This document shows, one piece after another, positions 1 through 58,954 of a stretch of 64,000 bases of DNA; the stretch's first letter is position 1; each line of letters starts with the position of its first letter. Source of the stretch: Macrostomum lignano (taxonomy: Eukaryota); the NCBI GenBank assembly GCA_002269645.1, contig NIVC01000859.1, positions 1 to 64,000 on the forward strand, written 5' to 3'. The notes below the pieces were generated by a model, which worked only from the letters and a program-made list of their open reading frames with translations, did not search any database and was not told the origin of the DNA. A program made the translations under genes and the position numbers.

Positions 1-750
1 GAAAAAAGCCAAGACTGTTTCTTCTCAACCAAATGTCGCATCATTCACAATCATTACGCCGTCACTCAGCATCTTTGAGCTTCAAAAGCACGAAGTAACT
101 CTTGATCGCCAATTTCATGGGGCAGTGTGTTCTAGATCGCTCCAAGATCATCATGTATCGACTTTACTATGACAAAATAAAACCCATGCTAGAATTCCGT
201 GATGGAGCAAGAGTTCGAGTTTGCGGTGGCGATACAGACTCGTTGTTTTTGAGCTTAGAGAACCTTAGTTTGCAGAGAGAAGTGCTGCCAATCCTGCATG
301 CCGAAGGCCTCTTGGACACCTCCAATTTTTCACTAATCATCCTCTCTTCTCGAATCGGCTAAAGGCCAAGCTAGGCTGCATTAAAGATGAAGCTGGTGGA
401 CTGCAACAGATTGAGTGGGTGCTGCTAAGGCCCAAGCTCTATTCTTTCCTCGCTGAAAGCTCGGCGGCATGCAAAGCAAAAGCAAAAGGCATCCAACGAA
501 GCGTGCTGAAGAATGAAGTCTCCCACGACGACTACGTCAAGATTTTCAAGGGGCTTCAAAGCTGTCGCTCACTGTTCGTCGAATTGGAAGTGAGAAACAT
601 CGCGTTTTCACCATTGAGCAACGTAAGCTCGCTCTCAGTATCTGGGAGGACAAGCGAGCGTGGACTGGCTCGAACTCAAGTCTTCCGTTCGGCCACTTTC
701 AGCTGTTAATCAGGGGTAGTCCGAAAAGGACAGCGGACTGCTTAGAGTGA
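1..750 (+). CDS. Protein-primed family B DNA polymerase, C-terminal part, with several small deletions shifting the frame
   Basis: Across frames: LDR(P)IFMGQCVLDRSKIIMY, GGDTDSLF (motif C DTDS), LDTSNF..HPLFSNRLKAKLGCIKDEAGG, LRPKLYS, KAKGI, RIGSEKHRVFTIEQRKLALSIWEDKR..SLPFGH; TGA at 748-750. Frameshifts near 105-115, 330 and 558. Confidence 0.92.
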
Positions 751-1479: not shown

Positions 1480-2042
1480 TTAGCACAGAAAACGGACAAG
1501 CAAGGAAAAGTCGGAAATTAGCATGCTCATTGTTTTTGCACCACTGAGAACAAATGAGCCATTGTGAAAAAGCAGGCATTTGCAGAAGCTTAGTTTGCAG
1601 ATCAAAGCAGAAAATGATTCTGGCTCATATTGAGCACTTGGTAAAGTGTTTACAAGATTAGCGAGGGGAAGTGCTCTGCACAAGTCAATTTCCCATGAGC
1701 AGTAATAGTTTTAATCCGCACATGCACAGCTTGATGAGGCAGCAGTTGAGCAGGCACTCTGCGATGCAGCATAGCCACGAAGCGACGAGCGGCCCTGACT
1801 GAGGCCGAGTAGCTCCGGGCGCCACAGATACTCAGTTGTCCAGTCGGATAGAGCAATAGAGTCACTCTGGGATTCCGCATCCTCTTGATAAGCACTCGGG
1901 GCCAGACGGGACGATAGATGACATGAGCCATGCTGAGAGCCAGTTCCCGCAGAGGCAACTGGGCACCCCTGCCTCCAGCAAGTCTCAGATCCACGCCGCC
2001 GACCAGATTGGTCACTCGCAGGGCTGTCGCAGGTGTACTCAT
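1480..2042 (-). CDS. TATA-binding-protein (TBP)-like protein, two TBP repeats, ~187 aa, split by a 1-nt deletion near 1688
   Basis: Repeat 1: LRVTNLVGGVDL..LPLRELAL..IYRP..VLIKRMRNPRVTLLLYPTGQLSICGARS, aligning to TBP '[39 protein letters not shown]'. Repeat 2: QYEPESFSALICKL..CLLFHNGSFVLSGAK, aligning to 'SYEPELFPGLIYRM..LLIFVSGKIVLTGAK'. The copy at 56.2-56.7 kb has both repeats in one frame. Confidence 0.88.
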
Positions 2043-2554
2043 TTAGAGAGTCCTTTCTGCCTGTGGTACTGTCTTTGCGAGCTTTTGAGTGGTGCGGGCA
2101 CACCTCGCTTCTTAAGTTGATACAGAACTTCGGTTTCAGCCAGTTGTAGTACAGTAATACATTTTTCACTGCGCAACCAGTATCAGATGCTTGAATCAAA
2201 GGTGATCCCAGATCCTCTAGGTTGTACACCTGTCTGCCAAGCAGCTCAGTCAGAAAGATGGACTTTTCACCCCGCTTGTCCAGGTGGGACCGTAAGCAAT
2301 GTTTAGAATGTCATTGCCAAATGCATGTACGGTCGAGATCCATCTGTCCACTTGAAATGATGCAAATTCTTTGAGAGCTTTCTGTAATGCACTTGCATCT
2401 CAGGTGAGATTCTCTCCCATGAGAACGGAGAGGCGTACACGTGATGAGTGATATGGTAACTGCCAGCCCGGACTTGGGCAATGGCCAGCTCCTTCACAAC
2501 GAAATCTCTGCTCGATCTCTCGCGTGGGAAGCCTTGGAAGTCAATATAGTTCAT
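1711..2554 (-). CDS. DEDD-like 3'-5' nuclease of the type common in Polintons; frame continues over the TBP 5' half
   Basis: N-terminal YIDFQGF..DFVVKELA, then HHFKWTDG, EKSIFLTELLG.QVYNLEDLGSP..GCAVKNV..YNWL. ORFs 2303..2554 and 1711..2229 join into one frame if two single G deletions (~2318 and ~2271) are restored. Confidence 0.65.
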
Positions 2555-2628
2555 GATCGGATGGTTTCAAGACGCAAGATGTCGGGAAGCCGACTCAGTT
2601 CCCCTTCTTAAATAGTTTTTTTTCCTGC

Positions 2629-3288
2629 TCAGTGTAGCCAGGCTCTCCCACTCCCGAATCCCTTAACTGTATGATGTGCAGGGGTGGCCTCTGGAGAAAC
2701 AGCCGGTTTAGAAATTAGCTGCCTTACTGACTTTCCTATAGCCGAAGCTGGGATGTTAAGCTTTTTGTCTTGAAGCAATGAGACAAACTCACTCCAGCCT
2801 ACCGGCTCGTTGGCACATTTCGAATCCCTCACCGCACTGTGAAACAAATCCAGGATGTTTGAGGAGGGTATTGTCTTCCCAGAAATTTGCGCCTCGCCAT
2901 TTTCGGACACCTGAATCAGAGAGGGATTGCCAGATAGGATGGCCCATAGACTGCGGGCTCTCGCTTTAAACTTCTGCGGCACGGATTGGGTGATCTTTTC
3001 CCCCCAGCTGCTTGGTGCAATATCTGTTTTCAGCATCTTTGCATCACTCGCAGGTACCGCACCATCCTTTCCAGTCCGCTTGCGCTTGGCCAGCAAACTC
3101 TTCATCGCATCATGGTACATGGCAGCTTTCACATCGTCTGGGCAATCCTCGGCAAGCAAAATATCATTGCATTTCCTCTGCGCATATCTCACAGCAGTGT
3201 CGAGTTCAGACTCGACTGGCTTCAAATTCTGTGTGAGCATGTCGTACTCTGACTTGGGGATCAGAACCATTTCTGAGAACTTATTCAT
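2629..3288 (-). CDS. Conserved Polinton/adintovirus protein of unknown function (219 aa)
   Basis: MVLIP N-terminus and 'SENGEAQISGKTIPSSNILDL..P.GW.EF..L...NIP..AI' pattern recalled from Polinton proteins; intact and in-cluster. Confidence 0.7.
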   Translation of the reverse strand: MNKFSEMVLIPKSEYDMLTQNLKPVESELDTAVRYAQRKCNDILLAEDCPDDVKAAMYHDAMKSLLAKRKRTGKDGAVPASDAKMLKTDIAPSSWGEKITQSVPQKFKARARSLWAILSGNPSLIQVSENGEAQISGKTIPSSNILDLFHSAVRDSKCANEPVGWSEFVSLLQDKKLNIPASAIGKSVRQLISKPAVSPEATPAHHTVKGFGSGRAWLH

Positions 3289-3598
3289 TTTGCTTCTTTT
3301 TCTTCACTAGCTTTATTAGAATGTAGAGAATTTTGATAAAACCCGTATTTAGCAGATCCGCAGTTCTTCTATGTGTAGAAATTTTGCGGATTATTTGCTT
3401 TTGCTTCACCAGCGCTGCCTTTTGAGTGAGTGAGAACGACAGAGTGTTTTGCAATAGGTTGTAGCAGGCCTCAATGAGAAATTCACGTACGGCTTTTGGA
3501 CCCGCTCTGATCAACAGACGTTTAAAGCTGATGGAATATTTCGGTGACGCGAGAACATTAAACAAACTTTCATGTGAGTCAAAGGTTTCCATTATCAT
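3281..3598 (-). CDS. Small basic Polinton virion-type protein (protein X/core-like, 105 aa)
   Basis: 'LIRAG...REFLIEACYNLLQNTLSFSLTQKAALVKQKQIIRKIS' pattern; lies directly downstream of the ATPase. Confidence 0.6.
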   Translation of the reverse strand: MIMETFDSHESLFNVLASPKYSISFKRLLIRAGPKAVREFLIEACYNLLQNTLSFSLTQKAALVKQKQIIRKISTHRRTADLLNTGFIKILYILIKLVKKKKQNE

Positions 3599-3645
3599 TA
3601 GTGTTGCAGAATATAGAACAAATGGCGAAATCTCGGCTGTTATTC

Positions 3646-4299
3646 TTAAGTGTAAACAAGGTGGGGTCGCTGATTGGGCAGGATTCGAGCCCGGACGCGC
3701 AGCTCATCAGGGGTGGAAGGGTGAAAATCCAGGAGCAGGTAGGCTCCCCTGCCGTGCGATGTCACGTGCTTGAACACTGACAGCAGAAAGCCGGGCTTCT
3801 CAGCAAAGCACTGCCTGCCCAGCGCATCAATCTGCAGCTGGTCTCTGGGGTTCTTCATGATCACAAAGTACATCGCATTCAGACTCATTGTTCGCAACTC
3901 CTTCCCTTTAAAAAATACATTTTGGGTGAGCATAACCAGAAAGCAGGGCAAATGATGGGCAATTCCAGTGAAAACATTTCGCATTGCAGCAGAATTGGAA
4001 GTTTCTTCAATCAGGTCATCAAATACAACCAGGTCATTGGGTCTCAGTGCGGTCTCGATACTGCTGGGAAATCCCTGCTGCAGGTGCACGCCGAGACTGC
4101 TGAGCTCAGAGTGTGCTACTTGTGAAATCCCGTAGTACCACAGAACTCTCCCAGGCTTCACATCAAACATGACATCCTTGTATTGTATCAGATGTTTCAC
4201 GAAGGTTGTCTTTCCTGCATTTGTAGGCCCGCTGACAATCATGCAGCTTCCCTGTCGCAGGCGCACATCATAACAGTTTATCCGCTCACGTGTTTCCAT
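3646..4299 (-). CDS. A32/FtsK-like genome-packaging ATPase
   Basis: Walker A GPTNAGKT, Walker B LVVFDDL, HH..FLVMLTQN, RTMSLNAMYFVIMKNPRD; intact, 217 aa. Confidence 0.95.
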   Translation of the reverse strand: METRERINCYDVRLRQGSCMIVSGPTNAGKTTFVKHLIQYKDVMFDVKPGRVLWYYGISQVAHSELSSLGVHLQQGFPSSIETALRPNDLVVFDDLIEETSNSAAMRNVFTGIAHHLPCFLVMLTQNVFFKGKELRTMSLNAMYFVIMKNPRDQLQIDALGRQCFAEKPGFLLSVFKHVTSHGRGAYLLLDFHPSTPDELRVRARILPNQRPHLVYT

Positions 4300-4325: not shown

Positions 4326-4850
4326 TTAAAATCTAATTAAATTTCTTTTTCTTAAGCAACTCTCAAACCTTTGCAGGATTCTTTCATTCAAGTGGCTCTG
4401 CTGATTTGCATGGAGGTGCCGCAGAACCCACTCAAACGAGCGCTTGAAACGAAACTTTTGATAGGCAAACAAGAGACAGAACAAACCGCATTTAGCAGAG
4501 TTGCAGCTCTGAATTCGATTCACATTGCTACGTAAGTAGAATGGAGAATACCAAAAGGATTTCAGTGCTCTGTGAATGATCTCTAAAGTGCTGGAGTCCC
4601 AGCCCAGAGAGTTAAAGAGTTCTATGGAATTCTCCTTATCAGTATAACAAACCACCCAGTGACCGAAGGATGAGCTGTACTGAAGCAGAAAGAAAATAAA
4701 CTTACATCGAGATAAATTTCTTTTGAGAGTTGCTCACTGAATAAAGTTCAAAGCATAAGATGTTTTATTTATTGAATTCAAGACAATAATTAAACAGTTA
4801 TTTTGTGGCAAAAAGCTTTTAGCCAGTTTAAGCAGTTGAAAAGCATCCAT
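4326..4850 (-). CDS. Adenain-like (C5) maturation cysteine protease with one in-frame TGA at 4734-4736
   Basis: ATG at 4850 (MDAFQLLK) is in frame with FGHWVVCY (His), ELFNSLG and RIQSCNSAKCGLFC (Gln, Cys). Confidence 0.85.
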
Positions 4851-4873: not shown

Positions 4874-6156
4874 CTAGGATGGAAAATCTAGCAGAATCTC
4901 CCTGTGCTTCGTGACCTCAATCAGTGAGTCATACAGGCACATAACAATCAGAGATACAGGCTCCTCCAGGGCCTGTCGGAAGCGAATCTCCAGCCGCAAA
5001 TTCCCTCCTTCTGTCCGTACCACAGGGCCGCTCCCTCAGGCGTGAGATCGAATGCGAAAGCTGTGTTGCCGTTGGAGAACAACTGGTAGGGGACCCACGG
5101 AACCGAGTTGGTAGGGCTGGCTGACTGACAGCTTTTCAGGTAGTGCAAGTACTCTCTCACGAATGAATTATTCTCAGGTGCAAATGCAGCGTGGCACATG
5201 GCTTCACCACCTTTCTTTAGTGCTAGCTGGCTGAGGTTGAAGCTCTGGAACTCGAAGGGGCTGGAATGGTGATGGCCATTGAAGGCTCGGTGGTTCACGA
5301 AGACCAGCATAACGAACTTCGGCAGTTTGCCATGGGTGAATCCTTCAATGTTTTTTGACTGAATTCCCTGGGGTAGAATAAAGTTTTGCATTTCGGTTCG
5401 CTCGATGGGGTAAAGTGCGTTCTGATTGGTAAGTCCCTGTTCATGCGCCAGGCTGATGTGAGGCGCCACTTTGACTCGGCGCAGGTTCAGAATGCAGTGG
5501 GAGATTTCCATTCGGTAGGCTGTGTTGTTCTCATCTGGGGTTCGGATGGCGAATGCAGTATCGCTGGGCATCAGCTTGATGTGCAGGTGTAAATTGTTCA
5601 GCAGCAGAACAGGACACTGGAAAATGTCGCTGAGCAGTGGTCCCGCATACTCCACCCAGCGGGACTCCCTGTGTCTCTCGGCATGCCCCTCAGCAGCAGT
5701 TTCGGGTTCCAGGAATCCGGCGGGGTAGAACTTTAACTGCTGAGCATCGGATGAGCTCATGAGAGCTTTTAGGTAGGCATGGTAGGGGTAGAGCTGGTCT
5801 CCACCTGATACAATGCGCTGGTTGATGCTCACGATTACATCTGAGAATGCCGTAGACAGGACAAAGTTTTCTGGGTGCACCCCACTGTCTCTGCGCTCAG
5901 TGACAACTCCATCGGCATTTCGAACCTCCTCCCTCATCAAAGCCCCGCCAAGCCGGACTAGGCGACAGCGAATATACAGGAATGAGCTCAGCAGATCAGT
6001 GTACTCATCAGCCGATGGATGACAGTCGAATTCAATAGGTGAGTTAGTAGCAATAGAGTTCACGGGGTGAATATCAACATATGTGGATTTTTCAATGGCA
6101 GTCTGCAGCACGGGGGACTTGAACAAATCGAGTCTCGGGTTGAATCCGTAAGCCAT
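4874..6156 (-). CDS. Major capsid protein (double jelly-roll), 1-nt deletion near 5002
   Basis: LDLFKSPVLQTAIEKSTYVDIHP..SPIEF..YTDL.SSFLY N-terminus. The shifted frame supplies the typical C-terminus GNLRLEIRFRQALEEPVSLIV..DSLIEVTKHREILLDFPS*. Confidence 0.93.
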
Positions 6157-6158
6157 TG

Positions 6159-6569
6159 CTATGAGAGCGAGTCCAGAACACGTTTAACAGTCTTTTTGCT
6201 CACTTTTTGCTTTCCTTTGCCTGTTTTCTTGCTTTGAGTTTTAGACCTCCCTTTCTTAGGTTTATTTCGCCCTGACTGGCTTCTTTTCGGTGATTTCTCC
6301 GTCTTACTCTTTTTCTTCTTTTTTGTCTGCTTCTTACTGCCCTGTTTGACTAGTCGCTGCTTTGGTCTGTTTCTATTGCTTCTGCTGTTGCTGCTGCTAC
6401 CGCTGGCGGTGGTATGCCCTGGCTTTGATAGCGATATTGACTTTGTGGAAGCTTCTGGAGGAGGCTGATAAGTCATGATTCCTGGAAAACTCCCACAGCC
6501 ATAGAGCGCCGGCTTTTGGCTTCCTGCCAGAGTCCCTGAATACTGACGAATCAGCTGTTGGTAGTTCAT
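6159..6569 (-). CDS. Lys/Arg/Ser-rich basic protein, probable DNA-condensing core protein
   Basis: N-terminal Y..Q..G..LYGCG (possible adenain GxG site) followed by a highly basic tail; lies between penton and MCP. Confidence 0.6.
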   Translation of the reverse strand: MNYQQLIRQYSGTLAGSQKPALYGCGSFPGIMTYQPPPEASTKSISLSKPGHTTASGSSSNSRSNRNRPKQRLVKQGSKKQTKKKKKSKTEKSPKRSQSGRNKPKKGRSKTQSKKTGKGKQKVSKKTVKRVLDSLS

Positions 6570-7375
6570 TGTATTAGCCTTTCCCGAATATGAACTGTGA
6601 GCAGAACAGGGCTGCTGCTCCGAGCAGTCAGTGAGTAGCCAAAGATGTCACGCAGTTGAAATCTAATGCCATGTAGAAAATTAGCTTTCTGAATCGGGAA
6701 GAATATTGCTTTCTTAAACACTTTGCTCATGTAGCTGCCCCATTCGACATCGGATGACATGCTCACAGTTCGCAGCACGGAGTTCCAGTTACAGTTTGTT
6801 CGCTCCACAATGCTGCAGTGCAAGTTGATCAGGTTGGTGGGCGGACAACCGATGCAGCAGAGTGACACTTGCCGTCCGGGTGGGATCTTCACAGGCTGGT
6901 TTCCGAATCCCAGCCACTGCAGAATTTTACTTGATGGAAGGAACAATTCTGCTCGAGCCGTGTTGTTGAGCACTACCGTTCTCAACTCTTGGATTTCAAA
7001 CTTTATGCCAATATCTCTAGCGCTGCTTCGCCCCATTAAACCGGACTCATCAGCTTCCATTTCAGACTCCCTTTCGCTCATTGCATCGAAGAACAGTGAC
7101 TCAGAGTTGGCCAGCAGCTCATTCATGCGCTCAACCAGTTCCTCCACTCTAGCAAAGCGTCCGGGTTGAAGAACCAGGGCCTCATGCTCTCTTCCATCTG
7201 AGACAGTGAAGCAGTAAGGCTCGTCAACATTGAACCATGCAGCAGGCAGATGGATTTCAGCCAGACCTGCCTCATAGTCCACATTTCGATCCAAGTAAAT
7301 AGGTGAAGGCAGGTGAAAATGAAAGTCACTAGGAGTACCTTCAGCATTTTCGCTACAAATGATGATGCTTCTCAT
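6566..7375 (-). CDS. Minor capsid protein (penton, single jelly-roll)
   Basis: SDFHFHLPSPIYLD..YEAGLAEIHLP..WFNV; LHCSIVE..VLRTV; IRFQLRDIFG..VLLTVHIR. Confidence 0.88.
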   Translation of the reverse strand: MRSIIICSENAEGTPSDFHFHLPSPIYLDRNVDYEAGLAEIHLPAAWFNVDEPYCFTVSDGREHEALVLQPGRFARVEELVERMNELLANSESLFFDAMSERESEMEADESGLMGRSSARDIGIKFEIQELRTVVLNNTARAELFLPSSKILQWLGFGNQPVKIPPGRQVSLCCIGCPPTNLINLHCSIVERTNCNWNSVLRTVSMSSDVEWGSYMSKVFKKAIFFPIQKANFLHGIRFQLRDIFGYSLTARSSSPVLLTVHIRERLIQ

Positions 7376-7405: not shown

Positions 7406-8479
7406 TTACACTTTTCTTAAGTCCTTCTCATCCACCCAGTCAGTGGACTTGTAGCCGGCCCACTTGACGAGATATCGGATCTTTCCCTTCCGCTTCTCAG
7501 TCTTCAGAACCTTCTCGATTACATACAGCCGCTGCGAGTCCGGAACAGCTTGCAGCTCATGCTCATGGAAGAGGCCTCTAATGTCTTCCCCCTTCATGTC
7601 TCGAATCCTGTACATGTAGGGATAATGCTTTGGTGCCCTAAACACTATGGTGTACACCTCCTCGCTCCAGTTCGCCTTGTATCCCTTCCTGAAGAGTCTG
7701 GGTGCATTGGAAATCCGCACATGATCTGATTGGTTTTCACAGAACTTCGGTTTTCTCAGTTTCTCAACTGTCTCAATCGCTTTCCCATCATAAAGGTTCA
7801 TCCACACTTCAGTCTCGTTTGCTTTGCTGACATTCATTGGTGTAGTCTTGATGCTTCTGTGGAAAGTATTGTTATAGGACTTGACCAGTTTAGGCAGCAC
7901 ATCAAGCCATTGTAGAGTGCTGTTGTGAGTAAAGTAACGCCACATCTTGCTTTTTAAAGTTCGATTCCATCTTTCAATTATGGCTGCTTTGTGCTCACTG
8001 CTAGTTGGAAACGCCAGAATCCCCCGGTCTATGCAGAACTGGCGAAAAATTGCGTTGACAAACTCCTTTCCCTGATCTGTGCGGACAGTGCGCGGCTGCC
8101 GCTTTGAGCTCTTCAGCATGCTCTCAAACGCAGATTTCACTTCTGCCGCGCTCTTAGACTTCAGTGCTCGGGCCATTGCAAATTTAGACAAAACATCAAT
8201 GCAGGTGAGAATGTATTTATGCCCGCGATTATACTTTGCAAACGGAATCATTTCCACCAGATCCATCTCCCACTGATCATCAATGGCCCTCACTATTATT
8301 GGCGCCCTTGGAAATCGTACTCTAGCTGGCTTATGCAGAGTGTGTACTGGCTGCTGACTTAGCCACTGCTCAATGCTCTTGACTCCAATATGCTCGCCTC
8401 TTTTTCGCAGTTCATGTTGCAGTTTTGAAGAACTGCAATAGCTCGCAGGCTGATTTGGATTGAAATAATTTTTTTCCAT
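7406..8479 (-). CDS. Retroviral-like (rve) DDE integrase with C-terminal chromodomain
   Basis: YFNPNQPASY, WLSQQPVHTLHKP, QWEMDLVEM (D), VRTDQGKEF (D), IIERWNRTLK (E); chromodomain YVIEKVLK..RYLVKWAGY. Intact; likely start MEKNY at 8479. Confidence 0.97.
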   Translation of the reverse strand: MEKNYFNPNQPASYCSSSKLQHELRKRGEHIGVKSIEQWLSQQPVHTLHKPARVRFPRAPIIVRAIDDQWEMDLVEMIPFAKYNRGHKYILTCIDVLSKFAMARALKSKSAAEVKSAFESMLKSSKRQPRTVRTDQGKEFVNAIFRQFCIDRGILAFPTSSEHKAAIIERWNRTLKSKMWRYFTHNSTLQWLDVLPKLVKSYNNTFHRSIKTTPMNVSKANETEVWMNLYDGKAIETVEKLRKPKFCENQSDHVRISNAPRLFRKGYKANWSEEVYTIVFRAPKHYPYMYRIRDMKGEDIRGLFHEHELQAVPDSQRLYVIEKVLKTEKRKGKIRYLVKWAGYKSTDWVDEKDLRKV

Positions 8480-8646
8480 TTTCAGAAACAAAGAAACATT
8501 TTTTTTAGGTTTTCTTAAGACATTGAAAATGCATAGCGCATGTGAAAGCAAGCATATATTTTTTATTTTCAAACAAAGAGATGGAAAGCAGGTCTGGATA
8601 AAAAGCTCGTAGCACAGAGTTTGTCTCAATGTCAGAGGGTCTGCAA

Positions 8647-9414
8647 TCAGTCGAAGCACGGCCTGGGCAGCTTCATGGCATCCAATCTGCGCAGAGCGAA
8701 CGGCGGCTGCTTGCGTTTCCTGGCGTTCTCAGCGGCGGCTGCTTGAGCTCGGAACTGGTACCAGACTGGATCCTCTTGCAGATCAGTGTCCTGCCGAGGA
8801 ATCGCTCCAGCTGCTGGCTTGGTCAGTTGCAGAGGCGTTGAAGTGGCAAACGCTGTGTCGATTTGCAGATTGGATGGCATGCCAGCCACATCGCCAGCAG
8901 CAGCAGGAGCATCGTCCTCCGCCTTCACTACCGGCTTGGTCTCTTCCGCGTTTTCGCCAGCACCGTCTTCATTTTCGATGCTGTTGGAGGAAGATCCCGA
9001 CTCCAGCTCGTATACATCGGAAATCTCACGTGGAGCCGATAGCTGCTCGTCGATCCAATCCGCGTACTGCCACAGCTTTCGCCACAGCGGCGGTGTCAGC
9101 GGCACGGTGTTCCGCTTAAGAAACTCGTCGCAGCAGTCCTCCGGCAATCGCTTTAACCAGATAATGCCGTTTTTCACTTCGATGAACTTATCGAAGCCGA
9201 GTTTGACAACCTTTGGCTGTTTGTCCAAGGCCGCCTTGACAAGCGATCGCTTCAACTCCTTGAGCTTCTCCCACTGACGGATGTTCAAATTGAAGCCGGG
9301 GACTCCAGGTTTCAAACTCGAAGTGCTGCCATGTCGGTAAAATTTTCTGATAGCAATGAACATAACTCCTTCATACTCCTGTATTTGGAGTTTATATCCT
9401 TCGCCGATGTCCAT
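8647..9414 (-). CDS. Protein with two PC4/Sub1-like ssDNA-binding domains and a low-complexity tail (255 aa)
   Basis: Domain 1: DIGEGYKLQIQEYEGVMFIAIRKFY..KPGVPGFNLNIRQWEKLKE, resembling PC4 'SVRDFKGKVLIDIREY..PGRKGISLNPEQWSQLKE'. Domain 2, degenerate: KLGFDKFIEV..TVPLTPPLWRKL..IDEQL. Confidence 0.72.
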   Translation of the reverse strand: MDIGEGYKLQIQEYEGVMFIAIRKFYRHGSTSSLKPGVPGFNLNIRQWEKLKELKRSLVKAALDKQPKVVKLGFDKFIEVKNGIIWLKRLPEDCCDEFLKRNTVPLTPPLWRKLWQYADWIDEQLSAPREISDVYELESGSSSNSIENEDGAGENAEETKPVVKAEDDAPAAAGDVAGMPSNLQIDTAFATSTPLQLTKPAAGAIPRQDTDLQEDPVWYQFRAQAAAAENARKRKQPPFALRRLDAMKLPRPCFD

Positions 9415-9489: not shown

Positions 9490-9497
9490 CTTATATA
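9490..9497 (-). promoter_or_regulatory. Candidate TATA box (TATATAAG) ~75 nt upstream of the first gene of the minus-strand cluster
   Basis: Plus-strand cttatata; reverse complement matches TATAWAAR. Confidence 0.45.
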
Positions 9498-9535: not shown

Positions 9536-9681
9536 CATAGGCCTATGTTCTCTCACTAAGGCCCCATGGAATTTCCATGGCTTTCCCTGCGGCAGAGTCC
9601 ACCAATGCATTTACATAGGCGCTATGTTTACACACTACAGGCCCGTGGTTTTCCCACGGAAATTCCTGCGGCAGAGTCCAC
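9536..9681. repeat. Two imperfect ~67-bp direct repeats, each with a 6-bp hairpin
   Basis: cataggc..ccatgg-aattt-ccatgg..cctgcggcagagtccac and cataggc..ccgtgg-ttttc-ccacgg..cctgcggcagagtccac. Confidence 0.8.
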
Positions 9682-10264
9682 ATTTCCCCTACTACTTAAG
9701 ATGAATGTTTTTACTTTTCAATGCAGGGGCTAGAGCTCTTAAGTCCCTGGGGTCGGGGACTTAAACAACAGAGTTTTGACACCACGACAGCACATTGGGG
9801 TTGGGGATAAAGTTAAGATGAATCACTTTCAAGGGGAGCTCTTAAGTCCCTGGGTTGGGGACTTGGATGGGGTTGGGATCGTGCGGCTAAATTTGAGATG
9901 AATGTGAGAGGAGCTCTTAAGTCCCTAGAATGTTGTGGTTGGGATGGTGGGGGCTTACGTTAAGATGAATGAAGCTAATGGGGAAGCCGTCCAGCATTGG
10001 CCACTATAAAACAAGGCTAGATTGCAAAGGAGGTGTCTTGAAAACCAACTGATAACTAGGCCATCGCCCTCCAAAAAGATCTTGAATAATAACAATTGGA
10101 GATTTTGTTACTTTAGTTACTTAAATAATGCAAGGAAAGATGCCAGGAGAGAGAGGACAGAAGGGAAAGAGAAGAGAGGGAGAAAGGAGAGAGAAGGGGG
10201 AAAGAAGAGAGGGGAGAGGGGAGAAAAGAGGGAAGAGAGGAGAGTAAAGGGGGCAGAGAAGAGA

Positions 10265-10865: not shown

Positions 10866-11653
10866 CAGGGGCGTCGCCATGGATTTTATGGTGGGGGAAA
10901 ATCACATGTACATGTACATGACTAAATTCCTACATGTCCATTATTTTCAGAATCGGTGTTTTCAGCACTCATTTTGGCGCCGCAGGCACTCATTTTAGCG
11001 CAGCAGGCACTCATTTTAGCGCCGCAGGCACTCATTTTAGCGCCGCAGGCACTCATTTTAGCGCCGCAGGCACTCATTTTAGCGCCGCAGGCACACTCAT
11101 TTTAGCGCCGCAGGAACTCATTTTAGCGCCGCAGGCACTCATTTTAGCGCCACAGGAACTCATTTTAGCGCCGCAGGCACTCATTTTAGCGCCGCAGGAA
11201 CTCATTTTAGCGCCGCAGGAACTCATTTTAGCGCCACAGGAACTCATTTTAGCGCCGCAGGCACTCATTTTAGCGCCGCAGGCACTCATTTTAGCGCCGC
11301 AGTCACTCATTTTAGCACCGCAGGCACTCATTTTAGCACCGCAGGAACTCATTTTAGCGCCGCAGGCACTCATTTTAGCGCCACAGGAACTCATTTTAGC
11401 GCCGCAGGCACTCATTTTAGCGCCGCAGGCACTCATTTTAGCGCCGCAGGAACTCATTTTAGCGCCGCAGGCACTCATTTTAGCGCCGCAGGTGCTATGT
11501 TATGTCGCACTGTAGCAAAGTTATTGCATGATTTCCTTAACGGGTCACAAGGTGCATGGGGGTGGGGGACGTCTGGGGGGGACATGCCAATGCTTTGTCC
11601 CCCCACCCCACCTTGGACATGTCGACCCCCCCCCCCTGTTGGCGACGCCCCTG
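10866..11653. mobile_element. hAT-type MITE carrying a 21-bp minisatellite (~10965-11490)
   Basis: Perfect 14-bp TIR caggggcgtcgcca / tggcgacgcccctg; 8-bp flanks aatataca / catataca (7 of 8 match); internal (gcactcattttagcgccgcag)n. Confidence 0.85.
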
Positions 11654-14530: not shown

Positions 14531-15670
14531 TCAGACGACTGCAATCTGGGCCCTATTCAATTTCAATTCCTTTTTGCAAGCCAGTAGGTCCCCTGAGCGA
14601 GCGAATGCAGATGAAGTCGGATGCAGGTTGGCAGCTTGCAGTTCAGCTGGGATACCGCGGTTTTTCCGTACTGTCCCAGTTAGCAGCGTATCATGCTGCA
14701 GCAGCCAAGTAGCCAGCCGCTGAGACGTAAACCAACTGTCGGTAAAGACGTGGTGTCCAAGATTAAGCAAACTGCGGCACAGTTCTGCAACAACCTTCTC
14801 ACTCATCGTGAAGTCCTGACACCCGAGGCCTTCACCGAACTGATTATTGACCTCAGGGAATGTGTGAACGACGAAGTTCCATAAGTACGCACTCTCGCTC
14901 TCACAGATACAATACACTTTGATTCCGTATTTACTTTTCTTTGTTGGAATGTACTGTTTAAAGGCAACTCTGCCCTTGTACAAAACGAGTGTCTCATCAA
15001 CCGACAGTCGCTGCCGTGGCATGTAATTGTTGCTGCAGAGATGCTTTACGCTGTGCAGAAAGGGCTCCATCTTTGCCAGAGGGCCATCTCCTAAAGCCTC
15101 AGCGCAGTTGTAAAAACGCAGGCAGGACAGCAGCTGCTTGAAGCGGTCTCTTCAGAGCAAGAATGGCTTAGCCAAAAGGGGACAATGAAACGCTGGATCG
15201 GTTGACCTGTAGTTGGCGATTTCCGGCTTCTTGTCGACACCCATCAAAAGCACGATTCCCACTAACTTACGAACTTCATCCGTCGTTGAGTCCCGCCATT
15301 TTAACATTTGCTTCGGCAGTGCAGCCTCTGTTTCGGCTTCTTGAAAGATTCTCCAAGCCAATTAGTCCAATTGCTGAGGTCTTCGACCACTGATCTAGAA
15401 AAAAAGCTTTAGGAAAGCATCTTCGTTTCCATCAGCAGTTGGTGGAGGCTGCCAGTCTGGTCGGATGCCAGGTGTTCCGAGAAAATCGGGTAAGGCTGAT
15501 GGCCTGTTGTCCTAATTCGGTTGAACCATGTGCCACCCACCGGCTTGCTCGTTGTTCTTAGCGATGTCCATCTCATCGTCCTCAGACCATTCAAAAGTTT
15601 CATCAGCGGTGGAATACTGACTCGACGAAGTATCAGAGTCGAAACTAGCGTCAGAATCCATGTATATTTG
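14531..15670 (-). pseudogene. piggyBac (PGBD4-like) transposase, fragmented and 3'-truncated
   Basis: WRDSTTDEVRKLVGIVLLMG..PEIANY; LSVDETLVLYKGR..QYIPTKKSKYGIK (D1); VFTDSWFTS (D2); GTVRKNR. The third Asp is not seen. Confidence 0.9.
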
Positions 15671-22500: not shown

Positions 22501-22893
22501 GCAAAAGTACTCAACAATTCGTCGCCTCAGCAGCCTCAGCCGCCACCTCAGCAGCATCAGCCGCCACCCCAGCAGCCCCAGCCGCCACCTCAGCAGCCGC
22601 CCCAGCCTCCATTCCCTGTTAGGTTCTCTGCATTCCCAGCCACCAACGAACCTATAAGTATCTGCGTGTCGGCTGTAGGCGACGATCCCTTGGTTTTCTA
22701 CTTGCTGTGCGACAACGAACAGAGCAGAAGTCTGAGCAACCTGGTCTGCTCGATGGTTGAATACTACAACGGTTTGAAGCCTGACTATCCGCTAGGCTGC
22801 AACCTTTGCCCAGGCGAATTGGTGGCCGCTTATTATGAGCCAGATCAAACCTGGCAACGGGCCAGAGTTGTCAGTGTTGACCTACTTTTTTAA
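22501..22893 (+). CDS. Probable exon of a Tudor-domain (TDRD-like) gene, preceded by a Pro/Gln-rich tract
   Basis: Stop-free frame from 22501: PQQPQPPP.., then DDPLVFYL..LSNLVCSMVEYYN..PGELVAAYYEPDQTWQRARVVSV. No ATG, so exon boundaries are uncertain. Confidence 0.7.
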   Translation, partial: AKVLNNSSPQQPQPPPQQHQPPPQQPQPPPQQPPQPPFPVRFSAFPATNEPISICVSAVGDDPLVFYLLCDNEQSRSLSNLVCSMVEYYNGLKPDYPLGCNLCPGELVAAYYEPDQTWQRARVVSVDLLF

Positions 22894-43457: not shown

Positions 43458-45310
43458 TCAAATATAACTGAAGCGGATTATAAACATGCACAAAAGGTAT
43501 AGAACTATTTTAATTGTAAAACATTTAAAGATAATCATTACATCTATCTTAAAGCCGATGTTCTCCTATTAGCTGATGCTTTTGCAAACTTTAGAAATCA
43601 TACATATGAGAATTTTCAAATTGATCCATCCTATTGCTTTAGTGCACCTGGATTAACATGGGCATGCGGATTGAAAATATACAGATGTGAAAATTGATTT
43701 ACTAACTGATCATGATATGTTGTTAATGATTGAGCGAGGAATTCGCGGTGGACTCTCAGGGGTATTAGGAGATATATATACTAAAGTAAACAATAAATAT
43801 TTACCCAATCATAATAAAAAACAAAAATCATCATATGTATTATATCTAGATGCAAACAATTTATATGGAGGCTGCGTGAAACAAAAATTACCAATTGCTG
43901 ATTTCCAATGGGAAGATGATCCAGATTATTATAAAAACATTCCCGAAGGAAGGGGTTGCATTGTGGAAGTAGATTTAGAATATAGTCGGCAAGCAAAAGC
44001 AAAAACATATAAATATCCACTAGCTCCAGAGCATTGTTTAGTTAAGGAAGAAGATTTATCAGAAACACAAAAAGATTATCTCAAAGCAGACAATTTAAAA
44101 CACCTAGCAACAAAAAAGTTAATTTTAAATTTGTTTGATAAGAAAAACTATGTAGTGCATTATAAGCTACTTAAATTTTATGAAAAGCAAGGAATAAAAG
44201 TAACTAAAGTACATCGAACAATCTCGTTCATTAAGGATGATTGGTTAGCTAAATATGTTGACTTTAAATCAAATCAGAGACAGATGTCAAAAACGGGTCC
44301 ACCCCAACTGCCAGCCAGAAAACTGCCATCCGACAACTGCCAGCCGGAAAACTGCCAGCCGACAATTGCCAGCCGACAACTGCCAGCCGGAAAACTGCCA
44401 GTCGACAACTGCCAGCCGACAACTGCCAACCGACAATTGCCAGCCGAAAAAAACTGCCAGCCGGAAAACTGCTAGCCGACTACTGCCAGTCGACAATTGC
44501 CAGCCGAGAAAACTGCCAGCCGGAAAACTGCCAGCCGACAACTGCCAGCCGAGTAAACTGCCAGCCGACAAGTTCTAGCTAATTGAATCTACTGTAGCCT
44601 ACTTATTAGCTAAGTAAAATGCACGAAACTGTTTGGCTAGCAAAAGGCTTGTGGGGTAGCCTTAAATGTTGCCCTTCCCTTCCCTATTTTTTCAGATTTC
44701 CATTAGAAGTATATATGTGAGGAGAAAACTTCAAATTTTGTCTTTTAGGTAGCCTTTGCTCTTTCTTTGAAAGCTTTATTTAAGTAAAGTAATTTAATAG
44801 ACTTTCTAGGATTGCGTCAGTATAGCAATCGCAATCGCAAATTAAATAATAAAGTAAATGAACTTTCAATACAGAAATATTTACAATAGGCATTACAGAA
44901 TGCCTTCTCCTTCACATATATACTTCTAATGGAAATCTGAAAAAATTAGGGAAGGGAAGGGCGACATTTAAGGCAACCCCACAAGCCTTTTGCTAGCCAA
45001 ACAGTTTCGTGCTTTTTACTTAGCTAATAAGTAGGCTACCGTAGATTCAATTAGCTAGAACTTGTCGGCTGGCAGTTTTCTCGGCTGGCAATTGTCGGCT
45101 GGCAGTTGTCGGCTGGCAGTTGTCGACTGGCAGTTGTCGGCTGGCAGTTGTCGGCTGGCAGTTGTCGGCTGGCAATTGTCGGCTGGCAGTTTTCCGGCTG
45201 GCAGTTGTCAGCTGGCAGTTTTTCGGCTGGCAGTTGGAGTGCTCCCGTCAAAAACAACTTTTAAGAAAGATTATTGGAAATTAATGAACAATGCATTTTA
45301 TGGAAAAACG
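43458..45310 (+). pseudogene. Second Polinton pPolB (element B), central fragment, interrupted at 44295-45246
   Basis: ITEADYKHAQKV*, YLKADVLLLADAF.NFR, IDPSYCFSAPGLTW, IERGIRGGLS, YLDANNLYG (motif A), NYVVHY; resumes with KDYWKLMNNAFYGKT (motif B). Confidence 0.93.
44295..45246. mobile_element. Foldback/MULE-like non-autonomous element, 952 bp, 9-bp TSD
   Basis: gtcaaaaac at 44286-94 and 45247-55; GGG..CCC termini. Arms ~44295-44726 and ~44905-45246 are inverted copies containing 14/15-bp (aactgccagccgac) arrays. Confidence 0.9.
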
Positions 45311-55752: not shown

Positions 55753-56155
55753 TTGAAAAACACCCAGCCTCAGATCCACTCCGCCAACCAGATTGGTCAC
55801 TCTTAGGGCTGTAGCTGCAGGTGGACTCATTTCGATCCTTTACTTCTTCACCAAATCTTCTGCCAACTTCACTGCCCCTGTGCCACGGAAACTGCTCGCT
55901 TCTTAAGTTGATGCAGAACTTTGGCTTAAGCCAACTGTACTCGTAGTGCAGCAATGAATTTCTCACTGCATAGCCAGTATCTGAATCTTCAATCGATGGT
56001 GCTCCCAAATCTTCGAGGTTATAAACCTGTATACCAAGCAGCTCAGTCAATGGAAGGCTGGTCTTGTCCGTTTCATGATGCACAGAGCGTTCAATATCTG
56101 TAGTACCTGGCAATCTTTCCACCAAGAAGTGGTCAAGCTCACTGACATTTTTCAA
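55753..56155 (-). pseudogene. Inverted fragment: 3' part of the DEDD-like nuclease plus the 5' tip of TBP (copy 2)
   Basis: LTELLGIQVYNLEDLGAP..YSWLKPKFCINLRSE, and ATG at 55830 giving MSPPAATALRVTNLVGGVDLRL; homologous to 1975-2260. Confidence 0.9.
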
Positions 56156-56159
56156 GAGA

Positions 56160-56670
56160 CAGGGGTGCCCAGCTGCCTCTACGGGAACTGGCTCTCAGTA
56201 TGGCTCATGTGATCTACCGCCCCGTCTGGCCCTGGGTGCTCATCAAGCGGATGCGAAGTCCCAGAGTGACTCTGCTACTCTACCCTACTGGGCAACTGAG
56301 CATCTGCGGTGCCAAGACCCACGCAGACGCCAAAAGGGCTGCCCGTCGCTCCGTGGCTATGCTGCATCGGAGAGTGCCGGCTCAACTGCTGCCTCATCAA
56401 ACTGTTTGTGTTCGAATTAAAACTAATACTGCTCATTGACGGTTTAAGCTCCAAAATGCGCGACCGCTTACTGAACTTGTTAAAGTATTGCCCAAAGCCC
56501 AGTATGAGCCATAAACATTTTCAGCTTTAGTTTGTCAACTTAGGTATTGTAAATGCTTGCTTCTCCATAATGCCTCTTATATTCTTAGTGGGGCGAAATC
56601 TCTGCGTATGCTAAAATCCGACAGTACTTCTCTGTTTCGCTCTGTTAACACACTTATGCAACTAAAATAA
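56160..56670 (+). pseudogene. TBP-like gene, copy 2, two in-frame stops (56437, 56512)
   Basis: RGAQLPLRELALSMAHVIYRPVWP..LLLYPTGQLSICGAK..AH*RFKL..AQYEP*TFSALVCQL..LLLHNASYILSGAK..LK*, all in one frame. Confidence 0.9.
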
Positions 56671-58954
56671 AGCACAAGAATTATCCGCCTTTAATCAGAC
56701 TCTGAAAACTCGCTTGAGTCCTGCTCTGCCATTTTGCCTGTTATTTGGTTTCCTTAGCTGCAAGTTGAGTGGTCAAATACATCTCTAATGCAAAGTATGG
56801 ATACAAATTAAACTTTTAAGCTATTTTATTCATGTGAGAAACCAATATTGAAATTGATTAAATAGAAACGAAATTCCAACTTATCCAGTCACAATGAAGT
56901 AAAAAATCGAAGGCATTGCGAAATTCTAGCAGTATATTTTTACTTCAAATTTCTGCATCAAAGTACAGGGAACTGAATTCGTTAACTAAAGAATTGCACA
57001 CTAAGCACACTCCGAAACGTCAAGTGTTAGCAGCTAGCGCATGTTGATCCCACAATTTCTTAGACTTACAATGCTAACAGAGTAAGCTTTCGAATGTCAA
57101 AATATTTGTTTTTTAAAAATGAAAAATTGAAAAGCTCACAATGGAACTAATGTAACAGTGTTTATACCAAAATAAATGGCATATCCAGCACCAGAAATTG
57201 GTGGTAGGACAAGTTGTAGCCGGCTGCTAAGATTGCTTACAGGAACCGACTCTAGGGCAGCAATTGGGTTTGTAGCGTACTTTAATACTTTCTCGGAATT
57301 TCGTCAGATTTCTAAAAGTCAATACATTATTATTTTTTCTAGAAACTTCTTCGAGTTAGCAGCTTATTCAAGGTACGCATTATAAATAATAAATAATTAA
57401 TTACAACCTAACTTTTTATATTCTACTTGTATTTGCGTAACGTATATAATTAAGTGTTTAATCGCTTTGTTAAGATGTGTTCAATCTTTCTAGAAATTTT
57501 TGGAAAGCTTTATAAGTCTATAAATATACGGCGACGGCAGTGACATCAATCACGCCACCTTATTTTTCTCTCTTCGAATCCCCGATCTAATTTGCGTCGA
57601 TAAACAACCAAAAGAACCACCGCCTTGCTCTCATTCAATAACCAACAAAGCCGTCAACAGGTTCATTGTCCCAAAACTGGGGGCAGCATCGGCTTGTCCT
57701 TGGATCAGAAATTCCAGGAGGGACTCAGCCATCTCGTTTTCAGGTTGCTGTTGCTGCTGCTGCTCGCTGATGCTCTTTGCTTTGCTACCTGCCTCTCACA
57801 GTGCAGCAGAGTTGCATAAGCGTTTCGCCACCCAGCCAATCACACCTACCCCACGCCCCTTATTTCCATTGGCTATCTCAGCTGGCTCTTTTACGCCCTC
57901 CTATTCTTTTACATTACCGCCTATCTCCGCCGTGCAGGTGCGGCAGAGTTGCATATACTCATACTACCCCCTTTACGATTGGCGATCTTAGTCTGGCTGT
58001 ACATTTATATGCTCTTTGTAAAACATTACGGTTGTAAAAATGTTTGTGGGAACTAAAATTTAATTCAGTGCTGCTACACCAAAAGTGTTCGCAGACTTTA
58101 TGAGTTGTTTTTGTTTTCACCCTCCTGAAAACCGGGTTCTGTTGTCTGTACCCAGCCCTAAAATTCCCCAAACTTTCTCAGACATCTTGTATCAATAATA
58201 TTCCACAGGGGGTGCTGCTTAGTGCTTGCCTTCCACCTAACCGACCAACCCCACGCTAGGCGCGCTGGGCCTCTCCAAGTTTTCCAGTTCAACCAACCCC
58301 ACACTCTGACTTGCACTCCTACCCCCAATTGCCCCGTACGCTCGCTCTCCTATCTCCACACTGTTCGGCAGGGTTGCTGCTCTCACTTTTCTGCTCTGTA
58401 TCGGCTGGTTCACTTTCGAGCTGCTTCGATGAGTCAGTCTCAGAGTAGTGGACCTCCGACTCGGAGTAGTTATGCGCCGCCGGCTTTAAGTCTTCCAACT
58501 CACTCCAGTCTCCAGCCTCTGCTTCATCAGTTTCACTCCAATCCTCTAATTCTGATTCACTCCAGTCTCTAGAGCTGCCCCTACTATTGGAACCGCTATA
58601 GCTAGATTGAAGCTGCAATGTTTGAGTATTTTTAACAGCAATAGAAGTTTATATTTGGAAAAAATGTTGCTAACATAATTTGAAGTTTTTTTTATATAAA
58701 ACAATCAGAGGAATTTTTATCCAAAGATAAAAATGATTACAGTCTTTCATTTCACTTTCTAATTCAACAGTTCTTATTCAATATAACAAAAGTGATTTTG
58801 TCTTTTATATAGCTGGATGAACCATAAGCATCAAATGACACAATAAGCTGTTAAAAGCAATTTGAGGAAGTTATTAGGGGAAATGGTGAAATCAGGAAGC
58901 CAGCTGAACAATTTCAAAGGGACAAATTTAATTGAATTTCCTTCAAAATACTTG

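Follow-up and report, generated by a model that had tools for sequence, protein, structure and literature searches.

A Polinton integrated in the genome of the flatworm Macrostomum lignano encodes its own TATA-binding protein (TBP), and the data fully support that this is a conserved gene of the element. The gene, hereafter vTBP, lies near the beginning of the window, i.e., the whole stretch of 64,000 nucleotides that was analyzed (contig NIVC01000859.1, positions 1 to 64,000), which starts at the first base of the contig. Moreover, most genes of the element are preceded by a shared box, YWTAAGAA, which vTBP would read through a remodeled DNA-binding face.

A Polinton-encoded TBP and its broken copy in the window

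Two minus-strand frames match the TBP family PF00352 above the Pfam cut-off, one at 1650-2042 (130 aa, E = 2.7e-11) and the other at 1480-1710 (76 aa, E = 6.4e-9). Both frames belong to one gene with a frameshift near 1690, a natural sister of 187 aa matching 2042-1665 at 94% and 1692-1483 at 99%. The two-repeat TBP-like ORF proposed in the preliminary description of this DNA is therefore borne out, as is its lack of introns. In intact sisters of the same family (family A) the protein has 187 aa and is wholly TBP core. PF00352 scores of intact sisters are 76.3 and 68.2 bits, with two matching stretches in each. A comparison with one sister copy gives 12 indel events in the first 2 kb of the window and 1-5 per 2 kb elsewhere; because the indels pile up at the contig end, the break in vTBP may be either an assembly error or real decay.

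The features of the element in the window are as follows.

1 to 750, plus strand: 3' end of pPolB (tblastn to a sister polymerase; PF03175 and PF02945 on sister ORFs)
1480 to 2042, minus strand: vTBP, TBP-like with two TBP repeats (PF00352 on both frames; sister copies; fold model and Foldseek of an intact sister)
1711 to 2554, minus strand: ORF upstream of vTBP (281 aa in sisters; no Pfam match), which we take to be DEDD exonuclease-like
2570 to 3288, minus strand: conserved Polinton ORF of ~231 aa, working label PZ (no family match; no box upstream in family A)
3281 to 3598, minus strand: small conserved Polinton ORF of ~105 aa
3646 to 4299, minus strand: packaging ATPase, A32-like P-loop (weak P-loop Pfam matches; PF04665 in several homologues)
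4326 to 4850, minus strand: adenovirus-type cysteine protease (PF00770)
4877 to 6156, minus strand: putative major capsid protein (named for its size, its place, and its resemblance to other Polinton ORFs; no Pfam match)
6159 to 6569, minus strand: basic 136-aa ORF, working label core protein
6566 to 7375, minus strand: presumably the minor capsid protein (no Pfam match)
7406 to 8479, minus strand: retrovirus-like integrase with chromodomain (PF00665, PF00385)
8647 to 9414, minus strand: PC4 (p15 coactivator)-like ORF (PF02229 above the cut-off; in both families, just below the cut-off in family B)
9562 to 9696, no strand: terminal inverted repeat of ~135 bp at the element end, reading AGTAGT from the end (the sister on G000 contig C84 carries matching sequence at its two ends)

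Polintons are defined by terminal inverted repeats starting with AG(T) and by a 6-bp target duplication. The element described here combines pPolB (PF03175) and a retrovirus-like integrase (PF00665) with a packaging ATPase, a cysteine protease, and terminal repeats. The window holds the right end only, but a complete 12.1-kb sister on G000 contig C84 has both terminal repeats and the target duplication, and no ORF for a multi-subunit RNA polymerase was found in it. No family match underlies the names major capsid, minor capsid, core, PZ, and exonuclease-like, and no Pfam match to double or single jelly-roll capsid proteins was obtained among the element ORFs; by sequence comparison only, two Polintons from IMG/VR have ORFs with 27-30% identity to the major capsid candidate.

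vTBP closes a co-oriented block formed by the PC4-like gene, integrase, putative minor capsid, basic ORF, putative major capsid, protease, ATPase, the two conserved ORFs, and the exonuclease-like ORF, and faces the 3' end of pPolB. Thus, the preliminary description was right in placing it in the orientation of the virion genes, although with pPolB, which is on the plus strand, it is convergent. The overlap with a viral gene reported there also holds, the tail of the exonuclease-like ORF running over repeat 1 of vTBP. In its own frame this tail has a dN/dS of 1.1-4.4 in six pairs, so it is not under selection there, and a selected protein tail overlapping vTBP was rejected.

As separate observations, the PC4-like domain is a second factor related to RNA polymerase II (Pol II) encoded by both families, and a Polinton without a detected TBP (control L081, see below) has a terminal ORF at a similar place (L081:11373-11885). 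In one sister (L064:927-1943), the ATPase and the small downstream ORF, separate in the window, make up one 338-aa frame, probably by a copy-specific indel.

Copies, families, and selection

Searching the host genome with vTBP gave 153 matches (the best 150 of 230 candidates were scored), a figure that does not equal a copy number. Among the 150 matches listed, at least 94 are stop-free, with at least 187 codons and nearly full query coverage. A second family, family B, encodes a protein of 199 aa, 34% identical to that of family A, and has at least 17 full-length stop-free rows at 93-100% among the 150 matches listed for it. In the 12 flanks examined, six from each family, vTBP always adjoins the exonuclease-like ORF within a Polinton block. 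Its dN/dS ranges from 0.14 to 0.43, about 0.2 (Nei-Gojobori, 15 pairs from six family-A copies), and repeat 1 is under strong purifying selection. The corresponding values are 0.18-0.25 in the minor capsid gene, 0.07 in the major capsid gene, and 0.03-0.07 in the integrase gene. vTBP is a fixed Polinton gene and no recent retrocopy; a host TBP retrocopy inserted at this single locus, contemplated in the preliminary description, was rejected given the multiple stop-free copies in two families.

The host has its own, separate genes for TBP (L051) and for a TRF2-like paralogue (L052), both canonical. All named close relatives of vTBP are labeled Macrostomum lignano, and relatives at 30-70% identity are present in other data sets (P0002-P0004, P0009, P0011, and P0155). 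Of the eight matches at E ≤ 1e-30 in a profile search, seven belong to the vTBP clade and one is a duplicated plant TBP. Among 13 loci from a metagenome scan, the four examined (L067-L070) showed no Polinton context, and alignments of vTBP, ATPase, and capsid retrieved no relatives from IMG/VR. A third Polinton family lacking TBP was not found in the host genome, where the best 99 of 464 capsid candidates belong only to families A and B and a search with PF00770 gave no match. In the Atlas, only TBP clusters were recovered for vTBP, with recognition below threshold. Contigs of three runs presumed to be RNA and of one of uncertain kind cover parts of vTBP, which says nothing on transcription.

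As to how family B (L031-L042) is arranged, polymerase and PC4-like gene are at swapped ends relative to family A, and the sequence found upstream of the PC4-like gene recurs, in two copies, before the polymerase at the opposite end. Because both genes share it, the early promoter of family B seems to lie within the terminal repeat.

Fold and phylogeny of vTBP

The AlphaFold2 model of an intact natural sister, built from an alignment that contained host TBP and TRF2, adopts the TBP saddle (pLDDT 91, pTM 0.81). Foldseek gives a TM-score of about 0.82 to cellular TBPs in the PDB, with E-values down to 2e-14 and 44 matches at E ≤ 0.001. The structural check suggested by the preliminary description thus returns a strong TBP-fold match, the absence of which would have spoken against its proposal. 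Matches in the viral library BFVD are weaker (E from 1e-11 to 1e-3, 6-20% identity).

Polinton TBPs form one clade (SH-aLRT 98 and 99) in two quick trees of 88 and 39 rows, from which rows of at least 400 aa and most lower-ranked matches were excluded. In the smaller tree, whose archaeal labels are our own reading of the sequences, this clade falls outside the cellular eukaryotic clade and is loosely associated (support 83) with short divergent TBPs. A sister relation between vTBP and host TBP is not rejected by an AU test (p = 0.084). Long-branch attraction in this placement is likely, and vTBP may come from an ancient capture from a eukaryote. An origin as a TRF2 copy was rejected, since vTBP does not group with TRF2 and keeps F190 and F207, and so was archaeal contamination, vTBP being outside the archaeal-type clade and the elements being integrated with target duplications.

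The short divergent metagenome TBPs found loosely near vTBP (169-193 aa; P0016, P0038, P0050, P0055, P0057, P0075, P0086, P0098, P0100, P0106, P0117, P0124, and P0158) mostly have the canonical Phe set and may be TBPs of other Polintons or viruses.

A remodeled DNA face with a retained stirrup

Like cellular eukaryotic and archaeal TBPs (PF00352), vTBP has two direct repeats, the saddle fold, N69, F190, F207, and an acidic C-terminal stirrup, which in TBP contacts TFIIB. Unlike them, it is virus-encoded, lacks an N-terminal extension, is only 25-28% identical, and forms its own long-branch clade. Residue numbers, which we take to be those of yeast TBP, were mapped via the host TBP alignment. 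In this alignment the residues described in the preliminary description hold, with F190, F207, and YEPE retained in repeat 2, and in repeat 1 N69 kept, Trp-Pro at R98-F99, and Tyr at F116. The window copy has further changes not mentioned there, i.e., N159T, P191S, V122S, V161T, and T124C.

Residues N69, T112, L114, E186, E188, F190, and F207 are kept in vTBP, whereas F116Y, N159T, T124C, V122S/T, V161T/S, P191S/N, and F99P (nine of ten rows) are the changes present in both families. Across the ten vTBP rows of alignment A3, E188, F190, F207, Tyr116, and Thr159 are invariant, Pro99 is present in nine, and the EPE of the stirrup is constant, the L189 position being variable. On the other hand, 158 other TBPs have Phe99 in 149 cases, Phe116 in 151, and Asn159 in 147, and none of them has Pro at position 99, where this larger alignment misplaces family B. 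Consequently, with Pro99, Tyr116, and Thr159, vTBP departs from the canonical set of four intercalating Phe and two central Asn residues. The host TRF2/TBPL1 paralogue (L052) is likewise a divergent TBP with altered intercalating residues; however, it alters positions 99, 116, and 190 and keeps only F207, whereas vTBP keeps both F190 and F207 and groups apart. The basic stretch of helix 2 is kept in family A (AARRF compared with AARKY in the host) and lost in family B.

According to the available text of PMC1636458, the C-terminal repeat of TBP contacts the TATA element in its 5' half and the N-terminal repeat in its 3' half, and Pro191 was proposed to restrict TATA position 1 to T. In vTBP, position 191 is Ser or Asn, and the box described below usually begins with C. 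Judging from the residues, vTBP, having lost F99 and N159, might also bind DNA weakly or not at all.

A conserved box upstream of the Polinton genes

A box on the sense strand, YWTAAGAA, usually in the form CTTAAGAA, precedes 7-8 of 10-11 genes in three family-A copies, in most cases by 40-150 nt. When up to 160 nt upstream are considered, the count is 7 of 10 genes for the window and 8 of 11 for two sister subfamilies. The boxes of the window, together with a canonical TATA element, are the following.

2109 to 2116, minus strand: CTTAAGAA, 74 nt upstream of the vTBP ATG, inside the exonuclease-like ORF
2605 to 2612, minus strand: TTTAAGAA, 58 nt upstream of the exonuclease-like ORF
3643 to 3650, minus strand: CTTAAGAA, 52 nt upstream of the small ORF (3281..3598)
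4349 to 4356, minus strand: CTTAAGAA, 57 nt upstream of the ATPase
6711 to 6718, minus strand: TTTAAGAA, 149 nt upstream of the basic ORF
7414 to 7421, minus strand: CTTAAGAA, 46 nt upstream of the minor capsid gene, within the last integrase codons (identical letters in both families)
8512 to 8519, minus strand: CTTAAGAA, ~40 nt upstream of the integrase, intergenic
9490 to 9497, minus strand: canonical TATATAAG, ~84 nt upstream of the PC4-like gene, the sole TATAWAWR match in the element of the window

The box of vTBP is found at -74 to -83 in all five family-A copies tested. For the major capsid gene, the exact match is absent in the window copy, and the box is at -110 in the sister subfamilies and at -107 in family B. 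Also, the box of the exonuclease-like gene occupies matching places, at -53 in family B and at -46 to -58 in family A. In family B, CTTAAGAA occurs once per copy, CATAAGA and TATAAGA being dominant, and two boxes are only 12 and 19 nt before the first ATG. No box was found upstream of the protease gene in two family-A copies tested. Canonical TATA elements precede the PC4-like gene in five of five family-A copies, the polymerase end in some copies, and vTBP in family B.

The motif was defined after looking and on these same elements, whose copies are kin, and the following counts are to be read accordingly. In the gene blocks of eight element copies, YWTAAGA occurs 67 times in the sense and five times in the antisense orientation, and CTTAAGAA is found 5-7 times per family-A copy compared with 0.43-0.78 in 200 shuffles (largest shuffle value 3-6). 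Boxes within coding DNA persist despite saturated synonymous sites in the integrase (dS 1.7-3.4), and TTA AGA encodes 4 of 22 Leu-Arg pairs, compared with ~0.4 expected.

Two Polintons from IMG/VR, found with a broader ATPase alignment and giving no TBP match in six frames, served as the only controls. YWTAAGAA precedes only one of 11 genes in one and one of 10 in the other (for L080, 20.6 of 28.9 kb were covered and one gene start is approximate). Since each control has one such box before a gene, TAAG-type boxes are not exclusive to TBP carriers. In L081, canonical TATA elements are located at -44, -52, and -45 before ATPase, integrase, and minor capsid genes, respectively.

A candidate early-to-late switch and its alternatives

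The reading we favor, with somewhat better than even confidence, is that vTBP recognizes YWTAAGAA and brings host TFIIB and Pol II to the integrase and virion genes, host TBP driving the terminal early genes. The preliminary description had proposed that the protein may redirect host Pol II to non-canonical viral TATA boxes, an idea to which the YWTAAGAA box lends indirect support. In this scheme, host TBP would first transcribe the terminal genes from canonical TATA elements, i.e., the PC4-like gene, the polymerase end, and, in family B, vTBP. Then, vTBP would bind YWTAAGAA, in the place of a TATA element, ahead of the integrase, minor capsid, core, major capsid, ATPase, small ORF, and exonuclease-like genes, and its retained acidic stirrup would recruit host TFIIB and Pol II. 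The outcome would be an early-to-late switch without a viral RNA polymerase, with positive feedback in family A, where the vTBP gene itself lies behind the box. The fold, the residue pattern, the fixation in two families, the purifying selection, and the position and strand bias of the box are observed; the promoter nature of the box, its binding by vTBP, the recruitment of TFIIB and Pol II, and the timing are inferred. If this reading is true, vTBP is expected to prefer YWTAAGAA over TATAAAAG. A precedent is provided by the TBP mimics of beta- and gammaherpesviruses, which read TATT late promoters with host Pol II (PMC6541308, available text).

Several points stand against this reading. The protease gene has no box, the family-B boxes at 12 and 19 nt are too close for a TATA element unless a later ATG is used, and, with family-A vTBP behind a late box, the start of the cascade is left unexplained.

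The strongest competitor, although unlikely, is that host TBP reads the boxes as common variants of TATA, vTBP raising the free TBP activity or soaking up TBP inhibitors (such as the TAF1 N terminus, NC2, and Mot1) with no specificity of its own. The box indeed fits structural rules for canonical TBP in the available text of two papers: by a structure-based rule, CTTAAGAA is still acceptable to it (PMC13566119), and the wild-type protein has cavities for G at position 6 (PMC1636458), so the box does not need vTBP. Moreover, the element also encodes a general coactivator of the PC4 type, and the basic helix-2 stretch would point in the same direction in family A, but its loss in family B would not. 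Nonetheless, neither the convergence of both families on G6, nor the shared fixed substitutions on the DNA face, nor the canonical TATA in the same slots of the control is explained in this way.

Alternatively, the box could be read by another machine, such as a helper virus polymerase at TAAG, or be a 3'-end signal, with vTBP bending DNA for replication or packaging. Baculovirus late genes start at TAAG, which is also the core of the box, and several boxes are close to where the preceding gene stops, besides the two of family B located 12-19 nt from an ATG. However, ~400 nt separate the vTBP box from the upstream stop, the box of the integrase is intergenic and keeps a steady distance to the ATG, and canonical TATA fills the same slots in the control, which makes this possibility improbable, even if a divergent TBP from Giardia, without three of the four Phe residues, prefers single-stranded DNA (PMC12209930, available text).

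Slightly less probable still is the proposal, already raised in the preliminary description, of a decoy that binds host TFIIB through the stirrup instead of DNA and dampens host transcription. An EPE motif that stays invariant while two of four intercalating Phe positions and N159 change would be expected from such a protein; the conservation of F190, F207, N69, T112, and L114 on the DNA face and the purifying selection on repeat 1 would not, the boxes would stay unexplained, and an element without RNA polymerase itself needs TFIIB. Finally, a captured host TBP retrocopy riding along without function is very improbable, and its recent form is refuted, for although the host TBP core is one uninterrupted frame, the AU test tolerates a sister relation, and the window copy is broken, vTBP is only 28% identical to host TBP, has at least 94 stop-free copies among the matches listed, in two families and with dN/dS about 0.2, and has relatives in other data sets (P0002-P0004, P0009, and P0011).

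Beyond this element, the switch attributed here to vTBP might be extended to the tentative proposal, which we would not yet expect to hold, that Polintons without RNA polymerase run an early-to-late cascade by a true two-repeat TBP whose specificity shifted together with its promoters. If so, lineages would have their own TBP-box pairs, YWTAAGAA being the one seen here, as a natural set of orthogonal TBP-TATA codes.

Relation to known viral TBPs and Polintons

Herpesvirus TBP mimics are much larger than vTBP. In the available text of PMC6541308, KSHV ORF24, EBV BcRF1, and HCMV UL87 resemble it in that viruses without an RNA polymerase use a TBP-like factor with a modified TATA before structural genes; however, these proteins bind Pol II directly within a six-protein viral complex, whereas no partner was found for vTBP. 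Furthermore, vTBP is a bare TBP core of 187-199 aa, without the Pol II-binding part that ORF24, BcRF1, and UL87 have outside it, and the boxes differ, being TATTWAA for the mimics. For the five further members of that complex, no Pfam match of that kind was obtained among the element ORFs scanned, a search with family profiles only. By analogy, vTBP probably works like the beta/gammaherpesvirus mimics, though it is not a member of that family.

TBPs from Nucleocytoviricota and mirusviruses share the viral TBP fold with vTBP (BFVD matches), and TBP is present in 59% of mirusvirus genomes (PMC10132985, available text). Nevertheless, these viruses encode their own RNA polymerase, the 12-kb Polinton does not, and the structure of vTBP resembles cellular TBP more closely than it does the named BFVD matches.

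Regarding Polintons, adintoviruses, and MELD viruses, the available text of Starrett et al. 2021 (PMC8502044) gives a common set of pPolB, integrase, ATPase, protease, putative capsid genes, and terminal repeats, and the legend of its Fig. 5, as well as the preprint, has a TBP gene label for MELD virus maps. This weakens the novelty that the preliminary description gave to TBP as a Polinton gene, although a term search of the same text retrieved no discussion of TBP, promoters, Macrostomum, flatworms, altered specificity, or a matching box. Term searches of the available text of PMC11071308, 10.64898/2026.06.19.733378, and PMC12220804 retrieved no relevant TATA or TBP passage, and no literature on a Polinton, Maverick, or adintovirus TBP or promoter, or on Macrostomum Polintons, was found in a search that lay outside subscription journals, Repbase reports, and bioRxiv supplements. 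The novelty is therefore partial: the gene class has already been glimpsed in print, whereas the remodeled DNA face and its matching box were not found there.

The timing of capsid genes in animal Polintons and the rarity of observed virions are open questions for which vTBP and its box offer a candidate switch, testable in a laboratory flatworm carrying many copies. If true, the model would extend the TATT strategy of herpesviruses to an unrelated virus lineage with a much simpler protein, and would provide a natural altered-specificity TBP in a family with an otherwise almost invariant DNA face.

Additional observations

Three family-A copies, on G000 contigs C1580, C38, and C529, share 93-100% identity over most 60-nt windows as far as about codon 100 of vTBP, and 22-75% starting at about codon 120. 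A breakpoint of recombination between subfamilies is located inside vTBP (codon ~110-120, window ~1690-1710), so that repeat 2 and the downstream DNA are exchanged apart from repeat 1. A second, isolated fragment of this element family, with parts of the exonuclease-like ORF and vTBP, ~95% identical to the C38 subfamily and with an internal inversion, is located at 55761-56696 of the window and has its own CTTAAGAA at 55900-55907. Two near-identical copies (L059-L060 and L061-L062, on contigs C201 and C2466) lack ~2.4 kb corresponding to window 4970-7333, with most capsid genes, and retain intact vTBP and integrase matches; because their flanks share a 6-bp duplication, they may be one insertion assembled twice. 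Elsewhere, the window contains a degraded pPolB-like fragment at 43458-44289 (27-41% to family A), a 21-nt minisatellite within 20-bp inverted arms at 10882-11576, a piggyBac-type transposase fragment at 14531-15151 (PF13843), and a Tudor-domain exon at 22501-22893 (PF00567).
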